A stretch of DNA of 56,046 nucleotides from an uncultured Clostridia bacterium (GCA_947628845.1 CANRBK010000001.1:1-56046); one strand, 5' to 3'; shown: positions 32,001 to 45,867, counted from the first letter of the stretch. Translations and numbers: made by a program. The notes: generated by a model from the sequence alone, not told the origin.

Positions 32001-32540
32001 ATTCACTGGTATCAACCACATGCTGATAACGATCGTCCAGATGGAGCAAACTTTAAATATTTAGCATGGCAAATGGCAGGTGAAAAAGGTTACTATGATG
32101 GTTTAACTGCATACTATAGTTTATCTTATGTAGGTCAAAAAACACAAAGACCAGGCTTAAAAACAACTGACTTAATAGCATTACAATATATAACTGGTGA
32201 TAATACAATGACATATAAGAGATTTAAGATTGAAAGATATAATGAATTAGCAGAGTACTATAATAGACAAGATACTTATATAGATGCACAACAAATTTGT
32301 AAAGAATATTATAATGCCTTACAAGCAGATGCTAAAAACAATGATAGAAATCTTACATTGAGTACAGCAGTTAAGAGAAAGTACTTCAGCTTGCTAAGAA
32401 GTGAAACACAAGACTTCACAATAGATCCATTTAGCCAAAAGACAAATGCAGCAGTGTATAAGACAGAAAATATAGTAAATAATTTAAATGGAAACGAATC
32501 AGAAAGTGTTATAGAGAATCAAGCAGAAACAATTGAATAA
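20049..32540 (+). CDS. Giant (4,163 aa) surface protein: signal peptide, cohesin, TM hairpin, dockerin, Pro/Thr linker, Ig-like super-repeats, C-terminal M26 (Zmp/IgA1-protease-like) zinc metallopeptidase
   Basis: AAGGTGG RBS lies 8 nt before the ATG at 20049 (MKKISIFLLTIIISLVITTNVKA), so that start is preferred over the caller's GTG at 20037. Domain evidence is given in the sub-features and findings. HETLH is at 31488-31502. Confidence 0.9.
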   Translation: MKKISIFLLTIIISLVITTNVKAADNVILKSTKDKVNLGEEITISLDLNVENIISLYAYTAKLSYDKDVFEIIEKDNFEESENWSDITYNTKNNKFALINKEGDTKTNSLQIKLKVREDATPGKTIIAVNSITASDGEKDIKLDSESVEVMILKDGLAENESIPINTENEVTEENTIIEVEKDYSWIAYILIALMIIIFIFVIYYYIKSEQEETPTNKRITIISTSIIILIILLIFIIIILADKKADVNKDSQVDYEDTKDIIEYLLEIKNPNEDENISDKDINKDGQITIGDVAKSVNQATNQSYKNSSSNIKNSNKTTSSSEQTNPNEPVTPSEPTTPNEPTSPSEPANPSEPTTPSEPIKATIISSMPTNYYVEKGKNVEITYTIEDNTNEDVKQIRINGVAIAVTKVSDGVYKISAPIDGTIPQNRKVKLEVTEIIYTTEVVSTIHTTEVEILKLVPTITDDYITHKEDKSILHFNLVDEDDTFISGKVVVIAEDGTKTEKEFTHNGNNSIEIEISDFIKYNIKIEVTYDLDTNKNDNVNKKENEIIKEHEVLLEKNYNLQVTDFKLVSVTEDIVTLQFTSTNETQNKYYIENVIINNKEYTVIREGNTYIVNVPTEDFGKERSRLILQEVIINYIGFDKEIYFNDIEDILVFKTHPTATIDGIIVGENQNTISVNNIKIIDNDNTINKKYAVLKYGENIVSKKEITENAVTFNTENIENIYKAGKYTIEIAADYDAVDGKEHIVETIGTSEEFTIAICAQIVSSELNTYPKKNENMTIKYKIKDNTDEQVTAIYINGEKRDATKVEENVYSVSYTAPETSGPASITASKICYGTEEIVVTNKVDNIDVLKTKPYLLNKQEDDFEIYEDFANKTITVVFTIVDPDNASIEKEGYVTLAAGHFTDTSGNNMPKYNIGEKTTITFKDVTNGSYMLQIYTPPYDLDSNPNDDKNHYIDVSNGSRTAMRIVEFMQDPSQFHVDNITAKTDLKGTTKYLNKNEKYKLSFTADAINTSDQYYYPQYIRIKGDSNISERTFELERNGKTYITKEYLDGYDNIGPTEVEIESIILNNNEVISLTDKKLQIEVLKEKLDISDFVVNMDSQAEKATITYNMTDTDNSFISGKIVITDTENEEEQKIITIEKGKTSYDVKLTPFKNYTAELFITYDLDGDNTLGSENQKEEIFATANIELKVDYELSISDLQVVNIDKEKSVATLTFKSTNVSKHKISFVKVEGQEELCGVGYNKETDTYTFEYKINSEKLATKERTEIKIKQVKLDNNDELDIAQEIAAIIFKNKPTIENLKLEVIDNIKITAAFDVKDTDNTLNYLYVGLKNSAGNEVIEDTLEPTDRDVTFDITEPDKYTIVVKGSFNLIDGEEHNKDVLKESDEVAEIQVNAKILESILQNKYPNKNETIEIQYKIMSNTNFKPTKVTINDNKEYELIPTGKPDIYKISYQVSDVPGQVDLKVSKIYFENEQFVTLETPYIDSIDVLKSVPIVNITSEDFVEKGLVMFNIDVTDPDGAMTSGKAFVHENEGVKTLESGPNTLIVNVEPDTSHTLTIEIEYDLDSNTIQETENKNKSTISEKRIFTLTSNYNLEINNLHAINPTTGEDIKYVNKGEQIQLRFNSVNSTELTPKKVFLNDMQNEESDGTLYDVYPVENSKNEYYVNLTAENKAGNQKFEIESVILSSGKTINKEQFKDNKNPIVDLVILKTKPTISGYTSSNVGNSVIVTFNITDNDKALNNSKIKLINEITNVEITSKDITEGTNNHTFDALEPGVKYIIRLENSYRLSDDGKNDNTEIFKDDHIEITKKEESNFKARNLKVTERVPINKKAQVSFENGVMSYQDVDKITIDDVEYSVEKDDKGVYKLELEPKEKGVNTIQVQNAKIGEKTFPINRPLSYTYEFAIPEAKEVTEIEEEAGKAIIKYKLEDPDKSIRGLTAYMKNSSGSVATQINVEKYSIENGVENIVEMSLLKLNTYSIELRATCDIGNGTTEEKTLFEKDKISPPQVTVIKNEIDKEYVEKGGKVVLTFVINTNVDSDVKKIYINQDGYNVEKVLDEDKKVIPDTYTVTLEAPKEAGVFEQNVTSIKIGDSQIDADYDKDLEKNKVCIKVLKDVPTLTHFIVNEQEGKITFKVNDEDKALSKSINSKLIVKQEDREVGTAELNKGGTEYDLDLEKIGMTAKSYPQPYNVVVNSTYDLRPDAPENMNIFQKIKNFFTGNKNEVKTIANGDTTENEDGEEEPEEPKEGIRVSDIFNKNIELTGNISYNLDFEDKGRYYLFNMKTPVEVEFDCSTGTRYKVEKVILEGKEYPVVITKELGDNKYTYQAMYIPSSYSQESIQYNKIILENGKAFDINETIPCMIVQAEPTFSITNFTEDTKERKVRFGYKLVDDDKKLADSPTFTLKDSQGSILQTIKAKDGENMVEFDIPDPPTSIYNLSVTVPKYVVSGWDYTEIWEAYNDSHKSSVTTSILSSEIQNKYPKKGETIEIIYNISSTRVVLIDKEDHTNQDKAVSITKMIINGKEYDVETLDEKDYGKEKYRVYYTAKDDDGIEEINVSKILFSNGDEEEFPRKDKIDILKETPQIVDFKTENNIETGKVTFKFKVLDPDSVLGTNSIYAQVDENGETQPVNIGENTLTFDAKLNQLSKFKVKATYDLDSDQLTTETDDNSYEMNTIFEKPFILTEEYAINFSNIKKYNSKGEETEYFEKNEDIKLTYECTTNWQEIYPELIVINGENYTPQKVDNEPNTYFVKLKSANNAGKADITFDRILLNSGNEVSLTGQKTTYEVLKDIVAVDEFTYTIGDNNDKIQLQINIKDIDSSNKNLTLEIKDEYDHPININKSTLNVGKNIIEFDKTSAGKYFASIYSTYDRDMDENNSKNNATNERIHYSIITVNTRYIEMKDIVDIELYKYGKTGEAERVDSITPESLNPIENCLVKVIMKDIPEFYSNITKYSIEDNKLKLVLEYTDAMVFNGNAELKPLEVTLELSSNGTAEYQYDKSFNSLIDEMKANPEGTFNLTKDYDLAGYAANNDDSTSIIDFEFKGILNGNGHRIYNLGKPLFNTLKDATIENIIIDKPEPKILSNTAILAKLVEGTTIKNVHIMNPICNFTGHAGIIAFDVKNKSVIESCSVTNIVGNYNGYAQLTSGFVTNLYDSTIKNCYLQGKIGGGWHFNAAFVKSADKYSEISNNIVNVTYTPSWDNNYGGNGGLTYTPDGALLKNNLCLIESGKASIIHYNGSLNKDSKNNYQLEESTAPKNENEKGIETISKKDITSEFFKNILEFSSEIWNIPNDASISNLPTLKSVSESYSDNGVQPENSKVYIPDYNRVTKLAEYKKNKEITYHNMYKIMPFYDAKELINDGNKIPDGNILNTKLIKYIVPYNKDGKMVTYLTTENYNSLGKIKMVFEDGTTQEHHIDFDDYYGNVASYMISDLKIGYNYNRYVIDTKLKIVQELIEEASKYEFTRDLEPLTTKIEDSRLYKEHFEKVTKNHIPEFVVNSLVNLGYTPAFESDVLDNKIRQELIDTNKLKQLLFAYNYFTYWYNLDMQGINLADAVMFQANQMFDDRMNLENMSSNLINESNSATNGTAGFYNNYLASLTKCSNLGLFLDYYVTTLTDYKDGNEWFKDNFKGGIYETVDIERNGTDYTIWDHVKKDGKVQNDILPALTVPENSMFIISAPTQVCFGSLRVYVNNPNDEKQIEQFRENKLKLYLDQIKSFYVFGYDFWGADTLNKYCDVQYDMRTTYTGRREETVYNNPLTTEENYHKYFIEAINRWAGTSGGAYANGSEVFWNVIKMLDGGFRVSTHETLHNQDSKIFMNNYGRRGGAEDYAAGFLQQYYRDGWVSPNIFDEEPNKENTTQNLHRSTVNTNDKLTKFYRNYFRTNDFLDYIEAQAFFKLSDEEKAKLVTQVSYPKKSDAEQDEGDSTVAYQPLTLDTVKAMKLDSIEKLWDNRIMLRPKNKEYEVHSPGADTDSIFNIHWYQPHADNDRPDGANFKYLAWQMAGEKGYYDGLTAYYSLSYVGQKTQRPGLKTTDLIALQYITGDNTMTYKRFKIERYNELAEYYNRQDTYIDAQQICKEYYNALQADAKNNDRNLTLSTAVKRKYFSLLRSETQDFTIDPFSQKTNAAVYKTENIVNNLNGNESESVIENQAETIE
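20124..20510 (+). other. Cohesin-like module at the N-terminus of the giant Zmp-like protein
   Basis: NVILKSTKDKVNLGEEITISLDLNVENIISLYAYTAKLSYDKDVFEIIEKDNFEE...IIAVNSITASDGEKDIKLDSESVEVMI. Confidence 0.6.
20604..20774 (+). other. Two-helix membrane hairpin
   Basis: WIAYILIALMIIIFIFVIYYYI, then the charged loop KSEQEETPTNKR, then ITIISTSIIILIILLIFIIIILA. Confidence 0.75.
20784..20950 (+). other. Dockerin module (class C)
   Basis: Ca-loop signatures DVNKDSQVDYED and DINKDGQITIGD, each followed by a helix (TKDIIEYLL and VAKSVNQA). Confidence 0.6.
21027..21132 (+). repeat. About six tandem 18-bp (6-aa) Pro/Thr/Ser/Glu linker repeats
   Basis: The protein reads NPNEPV-TPSEPT-TPNEPT-SPSEPA-NPSEPT-TPSEPI. 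The DNA is ccaa(g/a)cgaaccaacaa(c/g)(t/c) with small variations. Confidence 0.8.
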
Positions 32541-32543
32541 GAA

Positions 32544-32578
32544 AAAGAGAATGTTCGCAAAAACATTCTCTTTTTTTA
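32544..32578 (+). terminator. Rho-independent terminator of the giant gene
   Basis: aaagagaatgtt-cgcaaaa-aacattctcttt hairpin running into a T7 run. Confidence 0.8.
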
Positions 32579-32630
32579 AGTTAATTGCAAACCTTCCTAC
32601 AAAGTAAGTAAAAGTTTGTTTTTTAAAATT

Positions 32631-32682
32631 TGGTTGCGGGGGGTAGACTCGAACTACCGACCTTTGGGTTATGAGCCCGACC
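32631..32682 (-). pseudogene. 3' half of a disrupted initiator tRNA-fMet gene (element-chromosome junction)
   Basis: The reverse complement reads GGTCGGGCTCATAA-CCCAA-AGGTC-GGTAG-TTCGAGT-CTACC-CCCCGCA-A-CCA. That gives the anticodon loop (CAU), variable loop, T arm, acceptor 3' strand and CCA, but no D arm or 5' acceptor strand. Confidence 0.8.
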
Positions 32683-32780
32683 ATTTCCCAGTATTTTTAT
32701 ATTTTAAAAATATTATATATTCTTACTCTTGCAACCATTTCGGAAGTATTTAATACTTCGATTTTTTATATAAATTTATC

Positions 32781-32802
32781 AATGTCCCTTTAATGTCCCT
32801 TA
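32781..32802 (+). repeat. Tandem arm-type repeat (A/T)TGTCCCTT(T/A)A x2 near the integrase end
   Basis: aatgtcccttt-aatgtccctta. The 19-mer tgtccctttaatgtccctt (32783-32801) recurs identically at 42434-42452. Confidence 0.6.
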
Positions 32803-32811
32803 AAATGTATT

Positions 32812-34071
32812 TTAAGTACAGACATTACATTTCATTCCCTTTAAAATTTCAGGTACTATTTGAATATTATTTATAGGCTCTAGCTTTTCGATTTCAGCTT
32901 TATTTGTATCTTCGTCATATTCAACATAGTAATCCATTGTTGTACTGGCTAAGGTATGACCTAAATATTGTTTTATCTGATTTACAGGTATGTTTACATC
33001 TATACATCTTGTTGCAAATAGATGTCTTAATTGATATACACTTAAATGTTTAAAATTATGTCTTTTCAAAATCTTATCAAGTGTGTCCCATAAATAATCA
33101 CTACTTAAAGCATGTCCTAGACTATTCATAAAAATATACTCGTCATCTAGTTGTTTTTTATTTGTATATCCCTTTTGTTGCATAACATATAGCATATATG
33201 TATGCATTAAATTGTTTAACCATTTTTGCAATGGTATATTTCTATAACTAGATAGTGTTTTTAAGTCTTTTTCTTCAAATGTGGACTTAACTTTTTCAAA
33301 GTTATCATCATAATAGGTTATTTTCCCATAATTATCTCTTACTTTTACATTAGCATCTTCATAGCTGTAATGTTTCCATTTCATACCACCACTTTCTCCT
33401 GGTCTAACACCTGTATTCATTATAAAGATGTAGCATAATCCATTCGTTTCAGAAAGTAATATTTCTATCAACTGCTGTTGTTCTGTTGGTGATATTGTAG
33501 GTTTCTTTTTCTGCCTTTGAACTTTTGGTGTACGAATCGTTGGAATAGGGTTAAATTTTATTATTTTATCAATTTCTGCATCTGCAAATGCCATATTTAA
33601 AATACTTTTTATTTCCTTTATTGTTTTAGGAGAATATTTTTTTATGCCTTTATTTTCGTTGCCAGTTGTTAAGTCAGAGAAATATTCTTGAAGAATTAAC
33701 CTATCTAAAGATTGCATAGGGTAGTTACCTAAATAGGGAATAATGTTTGTTTTTATTTTTTCAATGTACCCTTGTAGAGTTCTAGGCTTAACAAACGACT
33801 TTTTATGAATACGAATCCATTTCTTTAACCATTCTTCTAAAGTTATTTTGTCTTTTTCTACATATTCATTATCGTTTGCTTCTTGTTTTGCTTTTATCAT
33901 TTCTTGTACTAGAATTCTCTTATCTTTATTAAATAAAGATATTTGCTTTGATTTTCCATTTACTTTTATTGTTATTCTACCTTCATATCCACCATTTTTT
34001 GGTCTAATAGAGCCCATTCCTCTGGTGTTTCTTTTTTTCTTTACAGACTGATTTTGTGAAGTTTTTACCAT
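32812..34071 (-). CDS. int: Tyrosine site-specific integrase
   Basis: GGAGG lies 7 nt before the ATG at 34071 (MVKTSQNQS...), preferred over the caller's 34116. The N-terminal arm-binding-type segment is RGMGSIRPKNGGYEGRITIKVNGK. The C-terminal catalytic signature is VYQLRHLFATR...YLGHTLASTTMDYY (R..H-x-x-R..Y). Confidence 0.9.
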   Translation of the reverse strand: MVKTSQNQSVKKKRNTRGMGSIRPKNGGYEGRITIKVNGKSKQISLFNKDKRILVQEMIKAKQEANDNEYVEKDKITLEEWLKKWIRIHKKSFVKPRTLQGYIEKIKTNIIPYLGNYPMQSLDRLILQEYFSDLTTGNENKGIKKYSPKTIKEIKSILNMAFADAEIDKIIKFNPIPTIRTPKVQRQKKKPTISPTEQQQLIEILLSETNGLCYIFIMNTGVRPGESGGMKWKHYSYEDANVKVRDNYGKITYYDDNFEKVKSTFEEKDLKTLSSYRNIPLQKWLNNLMHTYMLYVMQQKGYTNKKQLDDEYIFMNSLGHALSSDYLWDTLDKILKRHNFKHLSVYQLRHLFATRCIDVNIPVNQIKQYLGHTLASTTMDYYVEYDEDTNKAEIEKLEPINNIQIVPEILKGMKCNVCT

Positions 34072-34164
34072 AACTTTGCCTCCATTCAATACAGAGAACA
34101 TTAAAAGTAAAAGCACAATATTTAATGTTCTCTATTATAGGGCAAATTTCATTGGAAAGCAATG

Positions 34165-34362
34165 TTAAACAAAAAATCTTCCAGAATTTTGATCAAACCA
34201 GTCTTGTAATTTTTTCTTGTTAATAACAATTCTTCTTTTAAACTTAATGCAAGGAAAATCTGGGTACTTTATTAATTCACTCATTAAGTTTTTGCTAATA
34301 CCTAACATATTAGCTGCTTCACTAACATTTAAGCCTATTTTTTCATTAAAATTTTCATTCAT
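34165..34362 (-). CDS. Excisionase / MerR-type helix-turn-helix DNA-binding protein
   Basis: 65 aa, LNVSEAANMLGISKNLMSELIKYPDFPCIKFKRRIVINKKKLQDWF, immediately upstream of int on the same strand. Confidence 0.6.
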   Translation of the reverse strand: MNENFNEKIGLNVSEAANMLGISKNLMSELIKYPDFPCIKFKRRIVINKKKLQDWFDQNSGRFFV

Positions 34363-35665
34363 TTATATCACTTCCATATATAGATTAGGCACATTTATCA
34401 TAAACTGCCTTATGGAAGGGCAAACTTTTCGGGTCAACACATACTTTTATTAATTTTTTTAGCAAATCACTTCCTTTCTCATATATAATTTTATAACCTT
34501 TTTTTATTAATTTCAATAAGCACGGCTAAAAAAATTTTTTCGTTGATATTTAGGGTTTTTTAAGCACTTTTAGTATGGAATTTTAAATTCCTTAGGCATT
34601 TTTTTATTATAACTTATGGTATTTGTTTTAATTAAAAATAAAAACTATAAAGGCTAATTTTAAAGCATAAGACTTAAACAATTTATTTAAAATTGTAAGT
34701 GCTTTTTCAAAGAAAAATAGTAGTATCCTCCAGTTAGAAACAACAAATATAACTTGTCTTACAAAAATTTTAGCCAAATTTAATAATTATCCACATTTTC
34801 TTAACAATGTATTGATAAGAACAACAGAAATCAAAGAAAATAACAAAAAGATTTATCCTATTTAATGAGAATTCTTTAAAAAAGGATATTATGGTGATAA
34901 GTTAAAAGTAATAAATTTTTTACAAGATTTTGGCTGTGCTTAAGTTAAGCCGTTTACAAAAGTTATTTAGAGATAAAAACGATAATTTTAGAAATATTTT
35001 ATATAGTAATATGGTAAGTAAAAAAGGTGATATATTCGTTCATAATACACGAAAAATCAATGATAATACGTTAGTAGCAAGATATATTATGCAAGTATAA
35101 AAAACGACTTATAAGATTTTATCAAGGCTATTAGCCAGTATATATAACTTTTCTTACAAATGAACATTTATTATATCATATTATTGTAGCAACTGAAGAT
35201 AATAAAAAAGGAATTGTAAAATTTATAAATTCCTATCCCTTTTCACTCCTTAAAACTGATAAATTAATTTTGGCATTTCCTAATAGTGGAGAGCTAGAAA
35301 ATATTGACTGTGAAATACCATTTTTATATACTACATATCCTGAACTTGTGGTATTAAATAATGATGGAGATGAGGAAAATAAGGAAATTTAACTTTTTTT
35401 ATATTTTATACTCTTTTATAGTTTTTGTCTAGAATTCTAAAATTACTTTTCCTATTTATATAGTTTGCAACTATATAAATAAAATATTTACTAAATATTT
35501 TAAGTTGATTTTTATTATTATTTGATGAATAAAAATAGTATGATACTTGAGAGTATGATATAATCAATAAAGATAAATATATCATCTTACTTATTTTTTA
35601 TAAGAAAATTTTTTTGAAACTTTTTTTTAATTAATGGGTATGTATTATTGAGAGTAGGGTAAAAT

Positions 35666-37282
35666 ATGGAAAAAGATTTGGATATGAAATTATATAATGA
35701 ATATTTACAAGGAAAAGAAGAAGCTTTTGAATTATTATACAATAAATATAAAGATAAAATAAAATATTTTATTTTTAATTTAATAAAAGACTATCAGAAA
35801 GCTGAAGATATTACTCAGGAAGTTTTTATATATATATTACAAAATAAAGTAAGGGAAGGCTATAGTTTTAAATATTATATATATCTAATTGCGAAGAGTA
35901 GAGCACTAAATCATATAGATAAAGAAAAAAGAAGGTCAATAATATCAGAAAAATATTTTCTAGAAAAAACAGAGGAAACGGAAAAAGATATAAGTGATAT
36001 TATAACACAAAAAGAAACAGAGAAAGAACTTATCAAAGCTATAGATATGTTAGATGAAAAATATAGAAATGCAATATATTTAGTAAAAATAGAAGAATTT
36101 TCTTATAAAGAAACAGCAGATATACTGGGAGAATCAGTTCAAAATATAAAAAATCTTATCCATAGGGGCAAAAAAGAATTACGTAAAAACTTAATAAAGA
36201 AAGGATTCGATGAAATGAATAAAGTCTCAAAAATGCTAATCATTATATTGTGTATAAGTATTGTATTATCAGGAGTTGTTTATGCTACAATGAAAATTTA
36301 TAAAAATATAAAAAGCAAAGCAGAAATGACTCCTACATATACAAGTAAAATTTCTACAATAGATACTAACAAGGTTTGGATAGGAACGTTTAATTTAGTT
36401 TGGAATGACTTTATGAATGATGTAATTGGAGGGAAAATTGAATTTGAGAATGAATATTCTGAATTAGCAAATGAATTAAATAAACAGAGTTTCACAGTAG
36501 AAAATTTATCAGAAGAAGATTATTTTAAAATGCATGGAGTTGCAACTTTCGATTTAAAAAATATAATTGAAAAAGGTATAAGCCAAAAGTTTAATGAAGA
36601 AAGCAAAATATTAGAAGAAGTAGAATGGGGAAATCCAGATGGTTATGTCTTGTATGCAATGTTAAGAAAAAAATTTAATTATTTAGAAAATTTTCCAACG
36701 TTACAAGCAAAGACATTTGGTAATACAGAAGAGAAAATTAAATACTTTGGAATAGAACCTAATACTAATCAAGATGCAAGTAAAAATATAGAAATTCTAT
36801 TTTATAATTCAAAAGATGATTTTTCAATAAAGTTAAAAACAATAGAGGGAGAAGAAATTTATTTATATCGAACATCTGGAGAAAATAAATCATTTGAGGA
36901 AAATTATCATGAAATGTTGGAAAAACAATTACAATATTCAGGAAATAAAAAGTGGCAAAAAAATGATATCTTAAGAATACCTTTTATAAAAATAAACGAA
37001 GAAATAAATTATGATGAATTATGTGGCAAATATATAAAAGGTACAGATTGGTATATTAGACAAGCTTTACAAACAATAGAATTTGAATTGAATAATTATG
37101 GTGGATGTGTTAAAAGTGAGGCATTAATAGAAGCGTTAAAAAATAGCATAAGCAAAGTAGATAGAGAATTTATATTTGATGATACATTTTTATTATATTT
37201 AAAAGAAGAACATAAAGAAAAACCATATTTTGCATTAAAAGTTGATAATACAGATATATTGATAACATATAATGAAAATTAA
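35666..37282 (+). CDS. ECF-type sigma-70 factor fused through one TM helix to a ~330-aa serpin-like extracytoplasmic domain
   Basis: Sigma region 2: YKDKIKYFIFNLIKDYQKAEDITQEVFIYIL. Region 4: YRNAIYLVKIEEFSYKETADILGESVQNIKNLIHRGKKELRKNL. The TM helix is MLIIILCISIVLSGVVYA (~36221-36283). The C-terminal domain shows serpin-like motif order: GYVLYAMLRKKFNYLENF, IEILFYNSKDDFSIKL, ILRIPFIKINEEINYDEL, ALQTIEFELNNYGG, FIFDDTFLLYLKE. Confidence 0.6.
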   Translation: MEKDLDMKLYNEYLQGKEEAFELLYNKYKDKIKYFIFNLIKDYQKAEDITQEVFIYILQNKVREGYSFKYYIYLIAKSRALNHIDKEKRRSIISEKYFLEKTEETEKDISDIITQKETEKELIKAIDMLDEKYRNAIYLVKIEEFSYKETADILGESVQNIKNLIHRGKKELRKNLIKKGFDEMNKVSKMLIIILCISIVLSGVVYATMKIYKNIKSKAEMTPTYTSKISTIDTNKVWIGTFNLVWNDFMNDVIGGKIEFENEYSELANELNKQSFTVENLSEEDYFKMHGVATFDLKNIIEKGISQKFNEESKILEEVEWGNPDGYVLYAMLRKKFNYLENFPTLQAKTFGNTEEKIKYFGIEPNTNQDASKNIEILFYNSKDDFSIKLKTIEGEEIYLYRTSGENKSFEENYHEMLEKQLQYSGNKKWQKNDILRIPFIKINEEINYDELCGKYIKGTDWYIRQALQTIEFELNNYGGCVKSEALIEALKNSISKVDREFIFDDTFLLYLKEEHKEKPYFALKVDNTDILITYNEN

Positions 37283-37496
37283 GAAAAATTTTAGAGTAAC
37301 TATTAAGAATTTATCATATATTTTGTTAGATACTTAATAGTTACATATAGATTCTTCGGAAAATTACTTGACAAAGTAAGACTATCATAAAAGTTGTGTA
37401 AATCGGATTTCTGTTCGACTCTGTCAAGTAAAGTGTGTAATTTTTTTTTGATTTTAAAATTTTTACAAAATCGATGACTAAAAATAGCCATCGGTT

Positions 37497-38201
37497 TTAT
37501 TTTTTTAATGTTTCTATACAATTTGTAATAATATCTTTTGCAGTTGGGCAAGATTTGTTCTCTTTTCCATATGTTTTGCTAATATAAGTTCTATCTTCAG
37601 TATATCTCCACATAGATTTTATTGCTCTATTAATATTCCATTTGACTTTTTGATTGGTAGTATTAAATTGCGTTGCTACTAGTGAGTATAGGCTATTTTC
37701 CATTTTTAATAATAATTTTTCATTTTTATTTGCCTCTAGAATAGCTTTTATTAGATATTGAGTACCAGAAGCACTCATATTAAATTTCAGATCTTTAAAA
37801 ATTGTTATAATATTTTTTCTATATACATCTTCTTCTAAATCTATCGCAAGTCTGTTTACATAGTTAGTTAACAGAGATAAATCTTTTGTTTTTGAGAATA
37901 TGAAATCTATATTTTCTTTATTTGATATTTTATAGATATAGTCTGAATATCCAGAAACGATAATAATTCTAGAATTTATATCTTCTTTTTGAATTTTAGT
38001 AATAACTTCTATTCCATCCATCTTAGGCATATTTAAATCTAATATTACAATATCAGGTTTTAATTCTAAAATTGAGTTGTAAGTACTTAGTCCATCAGTA
38101 GTTATATCTACTATTTTTAAATTTTCATTTCCTCTAATTATACTATTAAATAAATACTTCAAAAAATGAGTATTGTCATCTGCAATTAATATATTAACCA
38201 T
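37497..38201 (-). CDS. Spo0A-like response regulator (receiver domain plus Spo0A_C-type DNA-binding domain)
   Basis: GAGGAG lies 6 nt before the ATG at 38201 (MVNILIADDN...), preferred over 38222. Receiver residues are DD, ILDLNMPKMDG and a conserved K. The C-terminus GTQYLIKAIL...LYSLVATQFNTTNQKVKWNINRAIKSMWRY...PTAKDIITNCIETL parallels Spo0A ([28 protein letters not shown]...PTNSEFI). Confidence 0.65.
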   Translation of the reverse strand: MVNILIADDNTHFLKYLFNSIIRGNENLKIVDITTDGLSTYNSILELKPDIVILDLNMPKMDGIEVITKIQKEDINSRIIIVSGYSDYIYKISNKENIDFIFSKTKDLSLLTNYVNRLAIDLEEDVYRKNIITIFKDLKFNMSASGTQYLIKAILEANKNEKLLLKMENSLYSLVATQFNTTNQKVKWNINRAIKSMWRYTEDRTYISKTYGKENKSCPTAKDIITNCIETLKK

Positions 38202-38489
38202 AATATTCTCCTCAAAAATCATATAATATCTTTTAATGTAAAATACCGATTAAAATCAAAAAGGTTTCAAAATTGTCTATTTTTGTCTATTTTTTTAAAA
38301 ATAATATTTAAAAGATGTATTATATACAATATATATCTTGATTTTCAAAATCAATTTAGTTAAATTTAAAAACTTTCTTAAGAAGGGAGGGGATGAATTA
38401 TTATTTGTCTAGAGAAAATTGCAGAAATAGATTAAATGTAATTTTTTTGATTTTGTAATATAAAAAGTTATATTGAAAGGGGAATAATT

Positions 38490-39392
38490 ATGAATATGAA
38501 AAAATTTTTCATTATTTTTGCACTTATAGTATTGTTACTTTTATTAACTTTTGGTTGTGTATTAGCATCTAAGGATACTAAGTCTTTTGAATATCAACAA
38601 TATGAAAATATAGTTGATACATATAGCATTTCTACAAGGGCATCACAACAAGATGTAATACAAAAAGGAAATGAAATACTTGATATATTAAATGCAAATT
38701 CGTTGGCTAGAACTGCAAATCCATCAAATGATGACTACACTGTTGAAAAAATTATAAAAGATAATAATTACAATACTCAAAGCTATTTATATACAAACAA
38801 TAAGAATTATGAGATTCAATTAGATACTACAGATTTAAGTTTAACAGGAATTAATTCATTAGATATAAATTATAATCTTTCTTCAGAAAATATAGACAAA
38901 GAATACGTGCAAGAATATATCAATAGTATTTACACAAATTTAAACTTAGATAGTAGCTACAAACTAGTATACTTAGAGAAATTTGATGGTGCATTATGGG
39001 AAGCAGACTATCAAAAAGAATATGATGGAATTTATAATCCATATGAAGCAGTTAAAATAATATTTTCACCTATTGAAAAAAAGATTGCTAGTCTAAAAGT
39101 TTTTAAAATGAAATATACTGCTAATCAACAAAATAATACTACTAAAGAGATGGCTAAATCAACTTTTAACACTAAATTTGCAAATACAAAAGCAAATAGT
39201 ATATCAGAACTTAAGACTGAAATTGTATTTATAAGACCCAATAATTTAGTGGATTCTAATAGAGATGATGGTTCAAAAGCATTATTTAATAATAACATAA
39301 AAAAAGCATGGAAAGTTACAAATAATGAAGGTCTTTCTTTATATATTGATATAGAATCTGGTGAAGTTATAGGAGGTGAGCAGTTAAGATGA
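38490..39392 (+). CDS. Secreted (possibly lipid-anchored) PepSY-like domain protein
   Basis: Signal peptide MKKFFIIFALIVLLLLLTFGC. The C-terminal segment KKAWKVTNNEGLSLYIDIESGEVIGGEQL resembles the PepSY signature (W-x-V...Y-(I/V)-D-x-x-(T/S)-G-E-(V/I)). Confidence 0.5.
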   Translation: MNMKKFFIIFALIVLLLLLTFGCVLASKDTKSFEYQQYENIVDTYSISTRASQQDVIQKGNEILDILNANSLARTANPSNDDYTVEKIIKDNNYNTQSYLYTNNKNYEIQLDTTDLSLTGINSLDINYNLSSENIDKEYVQEYINSIYTNLNLDSSYKLVYLEKFDGALWEADYQKEYDGIYNPYEAVKIIFSPIEKKIASLKVFKMKYTANQQNNTTKEMAKSTFNTKFANTKANSISELKTEIVFIRPNNLVDSNRDDGSKALFNNNIKKAWKVTNNEGLSLYIDIESGEVIGGEQLR

Positions 39393-40021
39393 GAAAACAT
39401 ATAAAAATGTTATTATTATTTTCTATATTATTATCTTTAATATCATTTTCTGGTAATAAAACTTATGCTGCTGAAGGAGCAAAGGCATTTGGAAACAGTG
39501 CTATTAGTACATATATAGACGATATGGATTTTGCCTATGGAGGGTTTAGAAAATTAGGATATAGTGCTTCTACTAGTACAGCATATTATAATAATGTAAT
39601 GAATTGGATTAATACAAGTAGTAACAACTATGGTTTCTATATTACTACACATGGTCCAAGCAATGCATCTGCTGCAGCTGGCACAAGTTTCTTTGTTACT
39701 CAAGAAGGAAATTATATTTATCCTAGTAATATAACTGGTAATTGGCATCTAGTATATATTGATGCTTGCAATAGTAAAAGATCTGATTCATTTGCGAATG
39801 CTTTTAGAATATCAGGGTATTCAAATAGAGCTTATCTAGGATGGGCAACAGAAGTTGGTATGTCATCTGCAAACCAATTTAATGATTATTTTTGGAATAC
39901 ATATGTAACCACTCGTTCAATTCAAGCTGCTGCCGTTGCAGCTGCTGGACAAGTTCCTGGCTCGGGAACTACTCCTATTAGATTTGCAGGAGATACTGGT
40001 TGGTATGGATATTCATCATAA
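39389..40021 (+). CDS. Small secreted clan-CD (gingipain C25 / caspase-fold-like) cysteine peptidase candidate
   Basis: The start ATG overlaps the upstream TGA (ATGA at 39389-39392). The signal peptide ends TYAAEG. The His-Gly and Ala-Cys dyad context is FYITTHGPS...(39 aa)...LVYIDACNSKRSDSFANAF, compared with gingipain NYTGHGS...FDVACVNGDF...FAEAL. Confidence 0.4.
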   Translation: MRKHIKMLLLFSILLSLISFSGNKTYAAEGAKAFGNSAISTYIDDMDFAYGGFRKLGYSASTSTAYYNNVMNWINTSSNNYGFYITTHGPSNASAAAGTSFFVTQEGNYIYPSNITGNWHLVYIDACNSKRSDSFANAFRISGYSNRAYLGWATEVGMSSANQFNDYFWNTYVTTRSIQAAAVAAAGQVPGSGTTPIRFAGDTGWYGYSS

Positions 40022-40042
40022 GAATAAATACCTATAAAACAA

Positions 40043-40068
40043 AGGGGCTGTAAAAAAGTCCCTTTTTA
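40043..40068 (+). terminator. Rho-independent terminator
   Basis: aggggct-gtaaaaa-agtccct hairpin (one G-U pair) followed by a T5 run. Confidence 0.55.
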
Positions 40069-40343
40069 TTAATATCTTATCTATTTTAAAATATAATTTT
40101 TATTACTATTTTTTTAAAAATTATAACATTAGTCTAAATAAAAAACAGCTTATTTTTCAAAAGAATAGACCATTATATTTAAGTTTCTTTATTTAATGTA
40201 TTATAACTAATATTAAAATCATCTTTAAAAAAATCTTTATAATTAGCCCCATACTTAGTATCTAAATTATATACAAGTGGAATTAACTCACGAAAATACA
40301 ATTTATAATATAATCCAAATTACATAAATTATTATTTTTTCAA

Positions 40344-41267
40344 CTAGCAATAATATTTTCTTTCTTTATCAATATATTTTTCCAAATCTATCACACAATA
40401 ATTGGCACCAGGTAGTTCTTTTCGTAATCTTGTTTCCAACTCTGTATTACAAATAATACATGCATTTTTAGTAGAATTCTCCCTTATAAAATATTTGAAT
40501 CTTGTAATTTTTTCAGTATCTATAAAATAAAACATATTAATAAATTTATCTTTATTATTTGTATATTCACAAAAACTATATTCAGATAAATAAGCTCCTT
40601 TATAGCATTTATCTATAACTTCTTTCCATCTTATACTATGTAAATATTTTAATTTTTCTCTATTAATAGCATTATCTTCAATTATTAATATTTGATTCAA
40701 CCCAAAAGCAAAATCATTCAAATTTATTCTATTTATATCATCTACTAAAATAATAATATTTTTGTATTTCATTTCTTTTTGTATATCATAAGCTACAGAT
40801 TCAATATATTTACTATCATACTCTTTAGGAATTTGATAAGCTAGGTATTCAAATCCGTTTATATTAAATATTCCTATAAATCTTCTACCTGTTGTTGTAA
40901 ATACTCTTTTATCTTTTATTGCAAATGATGGTATAAAATCGACTGTTTTACAATTATGATAAAAAGCAGCTATATTACTTAACCTTAATAATCTTTCTCT
41001 ATATTCTTGATTTTTATTTAATTTATTATATTCAAAGTTTAATAATTTTACATATTGGATTCCTGATCCACCCAATACTAACATCCACCTAATTTTTCTT
41101 AAGAAATCTTTATCTATTAAATTTTTAATTCTATTTCTATAATACCTACTACTATTGAAAAAATACTTTGCATCACTTACATTTAAATACTGATATTTTG
41201 CAATAAATTTTATCAAAGAAATCTCATCTTCATTTGTCGGAAAATAACTCACACTTATCACCTCCAA
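40344..41267 (-). CDS. Mobile-element protein, replication-relaxation-family-like (winged-helix N-terminus)
   Basis: The N-terminus EDEISLIKFIAKYQYLNVSDAKYFF...RNRIKNLIDKDFLRKI has the pattern of Replic_Relax-type proteins on Firmicutes plasmids and ICEs. No catalytic motif was recognised. Confidence 0.4.
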   Translation of the reverse strand: MEVISVSYFPTNEDEISLIKFIAKYQYLNVSDAKYFFNSSRYYRNRIKNLIDKDFLRKIRWMLVLGGSGIQYVKLLNFEYNKLNKNQEYRERLLRLSNIAAFYHNCKTVDFIPSFAIKDKRVFTTTGRRFIGIFNINGFEYLAYQIPKEYDSKYIESVAYDIQKEMKYKNIIILVDDINRINLNDFAFGLNQILIIEDNAINREKLKYLHSIRWKEVIDKCYKGAYLSEYSFCEYTNNKDKFINMFYFIDTEKITRFKYFIRENSTKNACIICNTELETRLRKELPGANYCVIDLEKYIDKERKYYC

Positions 41268-41480
41268 TACTAACTAATAATTTACCAATAAATTGTCCGT
41301 TGGTAAGATATTCGATAGCTACGCTATCAAATACTTACCTCCACTTCAAAAACTATATCATTAAAATCATAAAACACTTGAAATATAAGCATTTTCTTGT
41401 AATTTGAAATATGCCAAATTTCTTTAATAAAAAAAGTTAATTTTGCTACATTTTTTGTAACTATAAAATTCACATTTTTT

Positions 41481-42170
41481 TCATTTTGTACTACCATTTA
41501 TGATAGATTTTTTATAATAATTTAATAAATTATCTGGATTATTACTCAATGCTAAAAAATATAAATTTACTAAATTTTCTCTATTTACATTTTGAAGTAT
41601 AAATTGAAAATTGTTATTATATAAATCATACAAGACATATATGATATCTTTTATCATATTAATTTTATCTTCTTTCATATATTGAAGCATATAAGAATCA
41701 TAATTAAAATCTAATCTTTCAATTATTGCTAAAAATTCCTTTGGAATTTCGTTACTATTATTTATAATTAAATAAAATAAATCATCTATATTAGATTTTA
41801 TATTATTATCTTTAACAATTTTGTTAATACACTCTTTACTTTTTGGTATATAGGGGTATTGATTTTTTTGATAATAGGGTAGATCTACAATATAAATATT
41901 TCTTGATACTATTTCTTTGTTTTCATTTCTTATAACTTCTGTTTTTATATATCCAAGTTCTTGTAAATGTGAAATCCATCTACTAACTGAGACGGCTGTT
42001 ACATTATATAAATCTGCAAAGTATTTATTTTGAGCATAACAATAACCATTTTTATTGGCTAATGCTGTAATTTCTCCATATAATAACTTTTCGGCATATT
42101 TTAAATTAGTGTCATACCTAACTGTAGCAGGTATTATTGCATAATAATTTGGTTGTTCTTTTTTATTCAT
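41481..42170 (-). CDS. Helix-turn-helix (HTH_36-type) replication-initiator/replisome-organiser-like protein
   Basis: NYYAIIPATVRYDTNLKYAEKLLYGEITALANKNGYCYAQNKYFADLYNVTAVSVSRWISHLQELGYI. This N-terminal pattern is typical of phage and plasmid Rep-type HTH proteins. Confidence 0.55.
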   Translation of the reverse strand: MNKKEQPNYYAIIPATVRYDTNLKYAEKLLYGEITALANKNGYCYAQNKYFADLYNVTAVSVSRWISHLQELGYIKTEVIRNENKEIVSRNIYIVDLPYYQKNQYPYIPKSKECINKIVKDNNIKSNIDDLFYLIINNSNEIPKEFLAIIERLDFNYDSYMLQYMKEDKINMIKDIIYVLYDLYNNNFQFILQNVNRENLVNLYFLALSNNPDNLLNYYKKSIINGSTK

Positions 42171-42242
42171 ATATTATGCGCCTCCATATCTTTAAATTTT
42201 GCTGAAGGGCAAATTTATAAAGTATGAAAGTATTTATAAACG

Positions 42243-42278
42243 AAAAAAAGAGACTTTACTTTTTATAGTAAAATCTCT
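42243..42278 (-). terminator. Rho-independent terminator downstream of the element-borne tRNA-fMet
   Basis: On the minus strand, the agagattttact-ataaaa-agtaaagtctct hairpin is followed by a T7 run. Confidence 0.55.
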
Positions 42279-42330
42279 GTATTAAAAATTACACTTAAAG
42301 GGACATCCCTTTAGGTAAAAACTTCCGAAT

Positions 42331-42406
42331 TGGTTGCGGGAGAAGGACTCGAACCTTCGACCTTCGGGTTATGAGCCCGACGAGCTGCCAACTGCTCCAT
42401 CCCGCG
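42331..42406 (-). tRNA. tRNA-fMet (CAU), initiator type, complete, carried inside the element
   Basis: The reverse complement folds as CGCGGGA-TG-GAGC-AGTTGGCA-GCTC-G-TCGGG-CTCATAA-CCCGA-AGGTC-GAAGG-TTCGAGT-CCTTC-TCCCGCA-A-CCA (76 nt). The C1:A72 mismatch and three consecutive G:C pairs closing the anticodon stem are the bacterial initiator hallmarks. Confidence 0.9.
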
Positions 42407-42433
42407 ATGTTTCATTAAATATTGTGCTTTTTT

Positions 42434-42452
42434 TGTCCCTTTAATGTCCCTT
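42434..42452 (+). repeat. Second copy of the tandem arm-type repeat
   Basis: tgtccctttaatgtccctt is identical to 32783-32801. An inverted single copy, ttaaagggacat, lies at 42295-42306. Confidence 0.6.
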
Positions 42453-42595
42453 TATAATTTGATTTTTAATAATTTTTATTAAGTTTTAATAAGCTTAAAA
42501 GTTTTATTAAAGGTTTGAGCAAAATATATAATTTTCAACGTTTTTTTGTGTTATCAACGGTTTTGGACTTTAGCAATTCTTCGGTGCTACTCTGT

Positions 42596-42633
42596 TTATG
42601 AGCCCAACGAGCTGCCAACTGCTCCACCCCGCG
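42596..42633 (-). pseudogene. 5' half of the disrupted chromosomal tRNA-fMet gene
   Basis: The reverse complement reads CGCGGGG-TG-GAGC-AGTTGGCA-GCTC-G-TTGGG-CTCATAA and then diverges (ACAGAGTAGC...). Confidence 0.8.
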
Positions 42634-42732
42634 ATATTTGGACAATTTTTATTATATAACAAGATATACATATTTGTCAATAGTTTTTGAAAAAAATAAT
42701 GAAGAATATAAGAAAAAATATTTATAAATAAA

Positions 42733-42761
42733 TTGTCAAAAAAAAGTTGTTATGGTAAAAT
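42733..42761 (+). promoter_or_regulatory. Candidate promoter of the AAA+/VWA cassette
   Basis: TTGTCA (42733-42738), a 17-nt spacer, then the TG-extended -10 tggTAAAAT (42753-42761). Confidence 0.45.
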
Positions 42762-42803
42762 ATTTTTAGAGATAAGTCTTGAAGATTAAGGAGGGAAAAA
42801 AGT

Positions 42804-45038
42804 ATGAGTAATCTTACTTTTTTAACACAAGAGCAGTGTTTTGGAAGTGATAAATTAGATATATTACGAAAAAGAGGAACAGAGGCAGCAATAACAGATT
42901 TTTCTATTCTTTTAGGAGGATATGTTTCAGACTATCACATAGATGGTGATGATTCTTTAGAGAGTAGAACAGGTTATTATTGGACTAAATCAGATGACTG
43001 GGAAAACGACGCGCGCGTGGTTAACGCCGATGGTCGTAGATCTTGGAACGGTGTTCGTCTACGCAATGGTGGGGCGCGCCCAGCTTTACCGTTCTCATCA
43101 ATCTCTAGCATCCCCACGAACGGAGTGAGTGGGAAAAGAGCAAGAGATGGGATTCTTGAAGTAGAATATGGATACTATCCACAAAAAGCAGTATCAAAAG
43201 ATATGCAATTAAAATTAGAACAAGCATTTAAAAGTGGAAGATTATCAAGAACTGGAAAAGGATATACAACAGACTCAAAAAAAGATAATGATACTGATGA
43301 AAAATTTGAGCCAAAAAGACACTGGGAATATCAATATAACGGAAAAAGATATGTGAGAGTTGAAGCTAATTCAGTTTTTGGTGGAGGTGAATTTCAACTT
43401 TCAAATGGAGAAAAATATAGAGATGGAGATAATGTATGGGTAGAAGTATCTCCAGTAAAATGGTTAGTTGATGAAAAAGCAAGAATTATGCTAACAGAGA
43501 AATTGATTTTTGCAGGAGTTCAATTTAATCATACAAGAGATTATCATACAAGAGATTTTGACAAAACAGATATAAAAACATTTATGGATAAATATTTATC
43601 CAAAGAGTTAGAACAATCAAGAGGAACAATAAATTTAGGGGAACAACAAGAAGAAACAGAGGAAATAGAGGATACTGGAACTAGAAAATCAAGATTGCAA
43701 AAATTAAATCCAGATGATACGAAGCCTTCTTCAAGAACAAATATGACAGATACAGAAATAATACATAATTGGATAGAATCAGGAGAATCTGTATTGCTTC
43801 GAGGACCATCTGGAATAGGAAAAACAGAAAGAATAAAATCATTATACCCAGATTTAATATATATAAAATTAACAAATAATATGTTTCCAGAAAAAGTAGT
43901 GGGATCTGTTAATTTACAAACGGGGCAAAGCATACCACCAGACTTTGCTAAAACTGTAATTATGCAAGAAGCAACAGAAAAAGAAAGAAAATTAATTGAA
44001 GAAAATATACAAAGTATATACGATATAGCAGATATAGTTTATGAAAGATCAAAAGAAAGTAGAAAAAAAGTAGTAATATTGCTAGATGAGCTTTTAAATG
44101 TAAAACCAGCAGTTCAAAGTTTAGTATATACTTTAGTATTGAATAGAATGGTAGAGATAGGAAAAGGACTTAAACTACCAGATAATGTTGTGGTTGTTGC
44201 AACTGGAAATCAAAAAAAGTATTCAAGTGTAGCAGAGGATTTGGCAGAGCCATTAGAAAAAAGGTTTGACCATATACTAGATATGGAGCCAAAAGTTGGA
44301 GAATGGATAACAGAATATGCAATACCACATAAAATACATCCAGCAATAATAGGATATATGTTATCTAAATATAATAATTCTGGTAAAAGTGAGGATATAC
44401 AAGATATAGGTTATTTTTATGAGGAGCCAGAAGTAGGAGAAGAACATTTGGATAAAAATGGATGTAGAGGAAGGACAAATGATCCACGTGGATGGACTTC
44501 AATTTCAAACACACTTTACAATTTTGAAAGAAATTTAGAAGCAGGTAAATATAAAGGAAGAAATGTGGAAGATATAATTCAGAGGTCAATAGAGTCTAAA
44601 CTTCGTATGGAATGGGCAAGTGAATTTTTTGATTTTTATAATCTTCCAACATTAACTCCAGAAGAAGTAGTAAAAGGAATGGGTAAAGGATATACACAAG
44701 CAGATTTACCAAGAGATATAAGCGAGAGATTTGCATATATGACAGCATTGATAACAGCAGATAAAAAACAAGTAGAGGCCTGTAGAGAATTTATAAGAAA
44801 ACATTGTGATTCAGAATATCTTTCAATTTATGACATATATTGGGCAGGAAATGATGAAAGAAAAATGGAAAGAATATCAGAGTTACAAGAAATGACATTA
44901 TCTTTACATATAGCAGATGAGTCAAAACAATATGCTGAAGAAGGAGCTAAAGCTTATACTAAGATAGGTCAAATGTATAGTAGATATTTAGCAAGAAAAA
45001 ACACTAAAAAAAGAGGTGAAAATAATGAAAGAAGTTGA
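42804..45038 (+). CDS. Cytoplasmic fusion of a DUF6273-like (W-x-x-S...G-x-RPAL) N-terminal domain and a MoxR/AAA_5-type ATPase
   Basis: GGAGGG RBS and no signal peptide. The N-terminus contains EAAITDFSILLGGYV...YYWTKSDDWENDARVVNADG...GARPALPF and VWVEVSPVKWLVDEKARIMLTEKLIF. Walker A is GPSGIGKT (43803-43826). Walker B is VVILLDEL. Sensor-1 is VVVVATGN. LEKRFDHI follows. Confidence 0.75.
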   Translation: MSNLTFLTQEQCFGSDKLDILRKRGTEAAITDFSILLGGYVSDYHIDGDDSLESRTGYYWTKSDDWENDARVVNADGRRSWNGVRLRNGGARPALPFSSISSIPTNGVSGKRARDGILEVEYGYYPQKAVSKDMQLKLEQAFKSGRLSRTGKGYTTDSKKDNDTDEKFEPKRHWEYQYNGKRYVRVEANSVFGGGEFQLSNGEKYRDGDNVWVEVSPVKWLVDEKARIMLTEKLIFAGVQFNHTRDYHTRDFDKTDIKTFMDKYLSKELEQSRGTINLGEQQEETEEIEDTGTRKSRLQKLNPDDTKPSSRTNMTDTEIIHNWIESGESVLLRGPSGIGKTERIKSLYPDLIYIKLTNNMFPEKVVGSVNLQTGQSIPPDFAKTVIMQEATEKERKLIEENIQSIYDIADIVYERSKESRKKVVILLDELLNVKPAVQSLVYTLVLNRMVEIGKGLKLPDNVVVVATGNQKKYSSVAEDLAEPLEKRFDHILDMEPKVGEWITEYAIPHKIHPAIIGYMLSKYNNSGKSEDIQDIGYFYEEPEVGEEHLDKNGCRGRTNDPRGWTSISNTLYNFERNLEAGKYKGRNVEDIIQRSIESKLRMEWASEFFDFYNLPTLTPEEVVKGMGKGYTQADLPRDISERFAYMTALITADKKQVEACREFIRKHCDSEYLSIYDIYWAGNDERKMERISELQEMTLSLHIADESKQYAEEGAKAYTKIGQMYSRYLARKNTKKRGENNERS

Positions 45039-45441
45039 ATATAGTGAAGCAGCAACACAAGTATTAGATATATTAAATTATACAAGACAAGAAGATGTAA
45101 AAAAAATTCCACAAAGTTTTATAAAGTTTTTAAATAATATTTCAAATAAACAGGATACCCCAAAATTTAATCATGAGTATACAATAAGTGCATTAAACCT
45201 AACAAAGAGAACCAAAGAACTTTTAGGTTTTATGTATATTACTTGGTGGTGTAATGAAAGTGAAAGAAAAAAATATAAAAGTATAATACACTCTAATAGT
45301 ATAAAGACAGAAAAAATTACAGATTATAATGCAAATGATATACTTAATAAAAAAATAGAAAAGAAACCTAATATAACTAATAATACATTAGAAACCTCTA
45401 TCATTGAAGACAAGAAAGAAAATTTATTTAAAAAATTATAA
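45025..45441 (+). CDS. Hypothetical 138-aa protein (overlaps the upstream stop by 14 nt)
   Basis: AAGAGG lies 8 nt before the ATG at 45025, preferred over the caller's GTG at 45016. No motif was recognised beyond IPQSFIKFLNN...LLGFMYITWWCNESE. Confidence 0.5.
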   Translation: MKEVEYSEAATQVLDILNYTRQEDVKKIPQSFIKFLNNISNKQDTPKFNHEYTISALNLTKRTKELLGFMYITWWCNESERKKYKSIIHSNSIKTEKITDYNANDILNKKIEKKPNITNNTLETSIIEDKKENLFKKL

Positions 45442-45842: not shown

Positions 45843-45867
45843 GGTTTGAAGAAAGGAAGTGCCGCGA

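Follow-up and report, generated by a model that had tools for sequence, protein, structure and literature searches.

An integrative element that splits an initiator tRNA gene in an uncultured Clostridia bacterium and probably supplies its replacement

In tRNA-dependent lysogeny, which was shown experimentally and named by Guerrero-Bustamante and Hatfull (mBio 2024) for mycobacteriophages, a tyrosine integrase acts at a bacterial attachment site (attB) located at the anticodon loop of a tRNA gene in the host, the common core measures 8-17 bp, the host gene is not reconstructed and the cognate phage tRNA is required (PMC10865867). Several actinobacteriophage clusters integrate in this manner (Fionnbharth of K4, Cluster L, Gaia and others), with tRNA-Lys, tRNA-Ile2 and tRNA-Leu genes as their targets, and prophage Lj965 of Lactobacillus johnsonii has been named as a likely case outside the actinobacteria (PMC10865867). 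In classical islands the 3′ part of the tRNA gene is present in the attachment site of the element (attP), with identity over approximately 40-50 bp, and the gene is thereby rebuilt as a hybrid (PMC4383910). The present analysis concerns a stretch of 56,046 nucleotides from an uncultured Clostridia bacterium (GCA_947628845.1, CANRBK010000001.1:1-56046; the whole stretch is referred to as the window), in which a gene for the initiator tRNA, tRNA-fMet, lies in two halves with an intact tRNA-fMet gene between them. The locus is very probably explained by a 9,927-bp integrative element which inserted site-specifically into the anticodon loop of the initiator tRNA gene and which carries a replacement tRNA-fMet.

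ARAGORN identified three tRNAs in the window, only one of which, a tRNA-Met(CAT), falls inside the region studied; Rfam likewise reported this intact tRNA alone in the region, and neither program called a tRNA at the left (attL) or right (attR) junction of the element (coordinates are given in Table 1). Direct reading of the minus strand placed a 5′ half, ending in the anticodon loop CTCATAA, and a distant 3′ half at the positions reported in a preliminary description of this DNA. The junction coordinates of that description hold, while two details are amended: at the left junction CTCATAA is followed by A, and the cores lie 9,927 bp apart. The halves joined in silico gave a 76-nt cloverleaf called as tRNA-Met(CAT) by ARAGORN, as had been claimed, and the joined 76-mer was found, exact and contiguous, as a gene in an uncultured Eubacteriales metagenome-assembled genome (L088); the exact 38-mer of the 3′ half sits in contiguous tRNAs of both L088 and L030. 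The joined gene differs from the intact gene at 10 nt, which make up the five pairs 7:66, 28:42, 50:64, 51:63 and 52:62, all of them compensated inside the respective gene. The partners of G7 and T28 in the 5′ half are C66 and A42 in the distant 3′ half and not bases of the intact copy, so that the two covariations noted earlier, in the anticodon stem and at 7:66, are part of a set of five compensated pairs from which it follows that the orphan halves belong together and not to the intact gene. As judged from the sequence and the ARAGORN cloverleaves, the joined and the intact gene share the CAT anticodon, C1xA72, A11:U24 and three consecutive G:C pairs (GGG/CCC) that close the anticodon stem. 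The last three of these features are hallmarks of bacterial initiator tRNAs. A tRNA intron or a trans-spliced split tRNA was considered as an explanation for the separated halves and rejected, since the insert is 9.9 kb in length and holds a recombination module and Rfam found no intron; by eye, the DNA that follows the 5′ half and that which precedes the 3′ half showed no complementarity to each other.

The identity between attL and attR is limited to GGGCTCATAA (approximately 10 bp), and one base to the left of this sequence the host side has T and the element side C, which places the crossover within those 10 bp. At neither junction is a tRNA rebuilt; the element side of attL continues directly after CTCATAA with ACAGAGTAGCACC, which is no tRNA 3′ half. 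The earlier view that the target is destroyed, that attP is a mere mimic and that a whole substitute gene is supplied agrees with this finding, with the anatomy of the element and with the comparative loci described below. The arrangement could also be taken for a classical reconstructing island, the intact tRNA being a hybrid of a host 5′ part and an island 3′ part and the orphan 5′ half with its spacer being debris of an older element or a local duplication, in which case attP would read the core and then directly CCCGAAGG. Islander-type logic (PMC4383910) indeed reads an intact tRNA with a downstream 3′ fragment as a classical island. That explanation is nonetheless highly improbable, given that the halves of the intact gene match each other at the five pairs and do not match the split gene, the orphan 5′ half instead matching the distant 3′ half, and that the spacer between the 5′ half and the intact gene both holds integrase arm repeats and is conserved with the element across unrelated hosts, with homology starting at the core. 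A reconstructing form may exist elsewhere, as suggested by L069 (MNRS01000001.1), where the host promoter is followed directly, without the spacer, by a contiguous, hybrid-looking tRNA-fMet (pair 7:66 being a G7.U66 wobble) and then by the palindrome, terminator and rep gene of the element.

Recurrence of the left end was established by scanning genome contigs with 30 nt of the 5′ half, which returned at least 120 blocks with a TTGGG-type 5′ half; this variant is widespread in Clostridia and Bacteroidota, and L069, L070, L079, L088, L099 and L114 were among the matches listed. The tRNA is contiguous in most of these at least 120 listed blocks, and the architecture of the window is present in three of the matches listed, L079 (CANPFR010000003.1), L114 (JAAVZN010000022.1) and L099 (CANSOA010000004.1). 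In L079 and L114 the order, as far as each block reaches, is host promoter, 5′ half, CTCATAA, a spacer beginning with ACAGAGTAGCA and holding arm repeats, intact tRNA-fMet, palindrome, terminator and rep, and L099 follows the same order except that the start of its spacer has diverged. In each of the three a consensus promoter stands ahead of the 5′ half, the remaining flank being unrelated: alignment gave approximately 50-57% identity between loci for the host flank upstream of the 5′ half, which is no more than would be expected of unrelated AT-rich DNA sharing promoter hexamers, as compared to 90-99% for the spacer and 92-100% for the DNA that follows the tRNA. The core is thus the point from which the loci are homologous, and the tRNA moves together with the element. 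An intact tRNA-fMet occupies the same position relative to the core in L079, L114, L099, L144, L145 and L133, the last of which is the same strain as the window with the site also occupied. In the metagenome loci L144 (ERZ827496 NODE-395) and L145 the same spacer, tRNA and rep module stands behind non-tRNA DNA which shares only GGGCTCATAA, again marking the core as the boundary of the element. Here approximately 200 nt of CA-rich non-coding DNA ending in ACGGGCTCATAA abut the spacer-tRNA module (L144 3277-3540; L145 2120-2381); this upstream DNA is neither a tRNA nor the integrase-side arm, and there is no integrase within 7 kb. Neighbouring genes encode a PIN-Spo0A_C fusion, a DUF6119 protein and a Fic protein in L144 and a DEAD-box helicase in L145. 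These upstream joints may be tandem-array junctions or may represent a different arm.

The opposite end of the element was examined by means of its integrase, for which 52 relatives of 64-96% identity are present in public assemblies. Right junctions were read downstream of int, the integrase gene, in 11 distinct relatives of 69-94% identity (loci L121-L132, L148 and L149), and in 11/11 the core and then a tRNA-fMet 3′ half were found approximately 130-150 bp past the int stop codon, no tRNA being called at any of these junctions. The lead-in of the relatives is short non-tRNA DNA ending in (T/C)(C/T)GGGCTCATAA (GGGATCATAA in L131 and L132), and the equivalents of the attR motif before CTCATAA read GCTCGGG, AGTCGGG, GGTCGGG, GGTTGGG or TTGTCGGG. 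A core followed by an unrebuilt 3′ half in all 11 identifies the tRNA-fMet anticodon loop as the specific target of this integrase family. In L131 (1740-1790) and L132 (7970-8020), whose integrases are 92% identical, the anticodon stem of the target 3′ half reads CCCTG. A second, unrelated tyrosine integrase of 356-397 amino acids lies on the opposite strand directly past the 3′ half in four loci (L121 11730-12923, L122 6189-7382, L128 11707-12900 and L149 11507-12577), and stacking of islands at tRNA-fMet seems to occur in these bacteria. The cargo of relatives includes a CBASS system (SAVED, SMODS, E2-CBASS) in L132 and an AAA_15/RloB pair with a helicase in L128, and with such defence cargo the tRNA-fMet loci look like hot spots of island turnover. 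The larger elements L121, L124, L127 and L149 carry Sigma70_r4 and HTH_16 genes, and a type IV secretion system gene cluster lies just beyond the displaced 3′ half in L124. Relatives were viewed with 10-kb flanks, and the left ends of L121, L124, L127, L128, L132 and L149 fall outside this range. In L146 and L147, whose integrases are 92% identical, the int-side arm is fused straight to the palindrome, terminator and a decayed rep (L146 2340-2420; L147 1800-1880), approximately 350 nt comprising core, spacer and tRNA being gone between TCGAAGT and TCGGAAGT. Such a circularly permuted joint would be expected had an attP-type joint been formed earlier, in a circle or a tandem dimer, and then undergone a deletion, and it looks like a relic of this kind.

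The intact tRNA-fMet lies inside the insert, 190 bp from the junction as described before, in the same orientation as the destroyed gene and 227 bp downstream of the host tRNA promoter, which after integration faces the tRNA of the element across the 5′ half and the spacer; the promoter and terminator scan found no terminator-like site in between. The terminator previously ascribed to the intact tRNA was recovered in the same scan. The arm motif AAGGGACA occurs five times in the 56-kb window as compared to 1.7 expected by chance from shuffles, and 5/5 copies lie approximately 100-300 bp from a junction, the fifth being in the palindrome past the tRNA. In a circular form of the element the core would have these sites on either side, in the arm-type layout of a lambda-like attP.

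From these features a mechanism may be proposed. Given what is known of tyrosine integrases that target tRNA genes, the probable overlap region is the 7-nt anticodon loop CTCATAA, and the 5′ strand of the anticodon stem is one putative core-type site. The predicted attP copies only the 5′ side of the stem, GTCGGGCTCATAA, identical to that of the element's own tRNA, and copying of one side only means that integration would destroy its target. This attP would read AATACTGGGAAATGGTCGGGCTCATAA and, across the joint, ACAGAGTAGCACCGAAG, and the predicted attB would consist of the promoter, then CGCGGGG and onwards to GTTGGGCTCATAA, joined to CCCAAAGGTCGG. Transcription starting at the strong host promoter is expected to continue across the 38-nt remnant and the spacer as far as the spare tRNA, which could be expressed from this promoter, from the weak internal promoter in the spacer or from both, the weak promoter possibly serving in the excised state. 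RNase P, together with 3′ processing, would free the mature tRNA, the terminator of the element would end the transcript, and the spare tRNA would replace the lost host gene. The preliminary description had raised the possibility of an addiction or stabilisation device, and this is unlikely, as excision by the integrase and its excisionase within CTCATAA would restore the host gene exactly and only imprecise loss would be penalised; the idea is further weakened by the fact that the known dependency is the opposite one, integration without the spare tRNA being lethal (PMC10865867).

Several observations weigh against the explanation given here. BLAST of the in silico empty site against all collected loci found no locus that matches both flanks of the window. 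An exact look-up of the AAA protein of the right flank found nothing; homologues of it were present in L133, L134 (94% identical) and L136-L143 (84%), and L134, the closest relative of the right flank, is without any tRNA-fMet at this locus. Homology of L134 to the window stops at 42713, with a reverse transcriptase gene upstream instead, and transposase remnants lie upstream of the AAA module in L136-L143; from these differing upstream regions the split tRNA can be placed at the edge of a variable region, and this lineage probably has a tRNA-fMet elsewhere. On the left, homologues of the C terminus of the giant flanking protein were too few and too distant to locate the empty site. A search for arm and junction patterns in IMG/VR and metagenomes revealed no contig with an intact attP beside int and no circular form, the metagenome scan giving only L144 and L145. 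In L005 (at approximately 4433), L076 (approximately 33) and L038 (approximately 2003), CTCATAA of the 5′ half is followed at the same tRNA nucleotide by unrelated DNA (ATACCGACATACG or TTCTTCTTTTTATG), with no tRNA within the following 2-4.4 kb, and some hosts may thus tolerate the loss of one tRNA-fMet copy. No recognisable integrase is nearby in these three loci, and the left ends of L005 and L038 gave no informative Pfam matches; other families of elements may use the site with no spare tRNA close by. The larger relatives L121, L128 and L149 were seen at the right end only and may or may not carry a tRNA as well. Lastly, expression of the spare tRNA and the need for it are, like excision, inferred.

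These same points bear on a further interpretation, namely that the insertion is real and that the tRNA is not compensatory, the host having other copies, so that it would be a passenger, a landing pad (attB) at which further elements insert, a booster of translation or a decoy for defences that target tRNAs, the anti-defence idea having also been raised for the phage systems (PMC10865867). Beyond the elements which split the same site without an adjacent tRNA (2-4.4 kb) and the probable second copy elsewhere in this lineage, as indicated by L134, several tRNA-fMet genes occur in one 8-kb block in related Clostridia (L054). We judge it unlikely that this accounts for the locus, as in every copy seen the tRNA stands beside the core and is oriented like the destroyed gene, as it is intact even where it has diverged, its changes being compensated, and as the relic locus L070 has kept its tRNA despite decay of the 5′ half and spacer. 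Replacement of the lost initiator gene by the element's tRNA is the reading we prefer.

The tRNA diverges beyond its surroundings. It is just 84-89% identical in comparisons of elements that agree at 94-100% in the spacer and in the downstream DNA, the changes being compensated stem changes, and for L144 and L145 the identities are 99% for the spacer, 100% downstream and 89% for the tRNA. This indicates that the tRNA cassette is exchanged by recombination much faster than its flanks diverge. In L070 a decayed 5′ half and a decayed spacer precede an intact tRNA with no element DNA behind it, and both L069 and L070 would fit recombination between the core in the element's own tRNA and attR, although homologous recombination or deletion could have given the same result. 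It is conceivable, and we put it forward only tentatively, that the family has two usable crossover sites, namely the mimic beside int and the anticodon loop of its own tRNA, and may switch between non-reconstructing and reconstructing integration, exchange tRNA cassettes with its hosts and, on departing, leave its initiator tRNA behind. If so, the element would be a vehicle for the horizontal replacement of initiator tRNA alleles in gut Clostridia.

As regards known systems, the window element resembles tRNA-dependent lysogeny in its tyrosine integrase, with AAGGGACA arm pairs on both sides of the inferred attP core, in an attB (deduced from the joined halves) overlapping the host tRNA at the anticodon loop, and in a core of approximately 10 bp, no tRNA rebuilt at attL or attR and an intact cognate tRNA inside; at the level of sequence it displays every feature by which that mechanism is recognised. 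In contrast to the phages, it is 9.9 kb in size with no phage structural genes, its host belongs to the low-GC Clostridia as opposed to the actinobacteria, and its target is an initiator as opposed to the Lys, Ile2 and Leu elongators. The spare tRNA is 190 bp from the core, co-oriented and behind the host promoter, whereas the Fionnbharth tRNA, located elsewhere in the phage genome, overlaps gene 37 and is served by a strong promoter of its own (PMC10865867), and the need for the tRNA, which is proven for the Fionnbharth-type system, is only presumed for the window element. With classical Islander-type islands it shares an integrase near one end, a tRNA anticodon-loop target and a displaced 3′ fragment at the far end; it differs in that identity is approximately 10 bp on the 5′ side of the crossover, that no hybrid is formed and that a whole gene is carried. 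As in the Tn916/Tn1549 modules of Firmicutes ICEs and IMEs, an integrase with SAM_3 and catalytic domains has a small HTH_17 Xis-like gene immediately upstream, and relatives at 69-84% identity sit in larger elements with Sigma70_r4 and HTH_16 genes. Tn916 and Tn1549 insert with low site specificity into AT-rich DNA. The integrase family described here is, unlike these, specific for the tRNA-fMet anticodon loop, and no relaxase or conjugation family was detected in the window element. The principle has therefore already been published, and what is new is its occurrence in a non-phage island, the Clostridia host, the initiator target, the spare gene next to a promoter and the turnover of the cassette. 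These findings extend tRNA-dependent integration beyond actinobacteriophages to small non-phage islands of uncultured gut Clostridia, at a target gene that every cell needs, and the position of the spare gene behind the host promoter suggests a simple takeover of essential-gene expression. Island finders that look for an intact tRNA and a displaced 3′ fragment would set the left boundary approximately 230 bp too far inward and would probably misread the tRNA of the element as a regenerated host gene. The short conserved attB and cognate integrase could become an integration tool for Clostridia, if activity is confirmed.

Table 1. Features of the split tRNA-fMet gene and of the inserted element (positions in the window; a dot marks a feature to which no strand was assigned)
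Feature	Position	Strand	Basis or remark
Host promoter of split tRNA-fMet gene, TTGACA-18-TATAAT	42680-42651	-	sole 12/12 match in 32400-42900 (promoter scan)
5′ half of host tRNA-fMet, nt 1-38, ending in anticodon loop CTCATAA; host side of attL	42633-42596	-	CGCGGGGTGGAGCAGTTGGCAGCTCGTTGGGCTCATAA; read directly
Common core GGGCTCATAA at attL	42605-42596	-	three copies in window: attL, attR, intact tRNA
Spacer, 189 bp; P′ arm of attP	42595-42407	-	starts ACAGAGTAGCACC; 90-99% identical between elements in unrelated hosts
Weak candidate promoter in spacer, TTGATA-18-AATTAT	42557-42528	-	scan 9/12; conserved in spacer
Two direct AAGGGACA repeats in spacer, ~150 bp inside attL	42434-42452	-	repeat family D5; motif count against shuffles
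Intact element tRNA-fMet; anticodon stem TCGGG/CCCGA, T stem GAAGG/CCTTC, pair A7:U66	42406-42331	-	ARAGORN; Rfam 65 bits
Palindrome TAAAGGGATGTCCCTTTA just past tRNA, inverted pair of arm motif	42296-42313	.	kept in L079, L114, L144, L145, L069
Intrinsic terminator of element tRNA, 12-pair stem and T run	42278-42249	-	terminator scan
Replication-initiator-like protein, HTH_36, 229 aa	42170-41481	-	Pfam HTH_36 2e-12; PHROGs replication initiation families 7e-24
Element protein of 307 aa, function not assigned	41267-40344	-	no match in Pfam, PHROGs, PADLOC, NCBIfam
Cargo: two genes, 300 aa and 210 aa, signal-peptide-like N termini	38490-40021	+	translations; no family matches of note
Cargo: orphan Spo0A-like response regulator	38222-37497	-	Pfam Response_reg and Spo0A_C; NCBIfam spore_0_A below cut-off
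Cargo: ECF-type sigma factor fused to membrane segment and ~340-aa C-terminal domain	35666-37282	+	Pfam Sigma70_r2 and r4_2; NCBIfam sigma70-ECF; translation
Excisionase-like HTH_17 protein, 65 aa	34362-34165	-	Pfam HTH_17 2e-8; weak Tn916-Xis match; adjoins int in all relatives
Tyrosine integrase, 434 aa from first GTG (true start may be a few codons downstream)	34116-32812	-	Pfam Phage_int_SAM_3 and Phage_integrase
P arm: two direct AAGGGACA copies, ~100 bp from attR core	32783-32801	-	kept in L131, L132, L146, L148
Element side of attR, GGTCGGGCTCATAA; mimic of tRNA-fMet nt 26-38 with TCGGG stem	32682-32669	-	read directly
3′ half of host tRNA-fMet, nt 39-76 including CCA	32668-32631	-	CCCAAAGGTCGGTAGTTCGAGTCTACCCCCCGCAACCA; read directly

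Among the element proteins, no capsid, tail, terminase or lysis genes were found with Pfam and PHROGs, and the PHROGs matches with an annotated function are the integrase, the Xis-like protein, the sigma factor and the replication initiator only. The closest solved structure to the integrase is that of Tn1549 Int, albeit with a weak E-value of 3e-6. Pfam, PHROGs and NCBIfam revealed no relaxase or type IV secretion system family, three of the proteins being without any family, so that a novel mobilisation protein is possible. PADLOC detected no defence system among the cargo. Searches of a phage and a plasmid collection matched the window element solely at the tRNA itself, and IMG/VR held no close relatives of the element, integrase relatives found there by profile being at most 28% identical and none adjoining a tRNA-fMet fragment. 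The rep gene accompanies the tRNA module in L079, L144, L145 and L069. Spo0A-like regulators on a mobile element might interfere with the sporulation control of the host.

The flanks of the element hold further genes of note. To the left, on the plus strand, three very large open reading frames of 3416, 1365 and 4167 amino acids occupy window positions 216-10466, 11773-15870 and 20037-32540, respectively; a few relatives of the C terminus of the 4167-amino-acid frame carry Pfam Peptidase_M26_C and Glug domains, and 90 bp separate its stop codon from the tRNA 3′ half, a shared hairpin being located at 32530-32587. To the right, a module consisting of an AAA_5 ATPase, two small open reading frames and a DUF2201 protein is located at 42804-47241 in the window, 8871-9896 in L134 and 7679-9730 in L136-L143; this module is kept at 80-94% nucleotide identity, with DNA upstream of 42713 that is wholly different in each. 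Further along, genes for tRNA-Gly(GCC) and tRNA-Cys(GCA) lie at window positions 55130-55291, downstream of topA, and the same pair is also present in L146.

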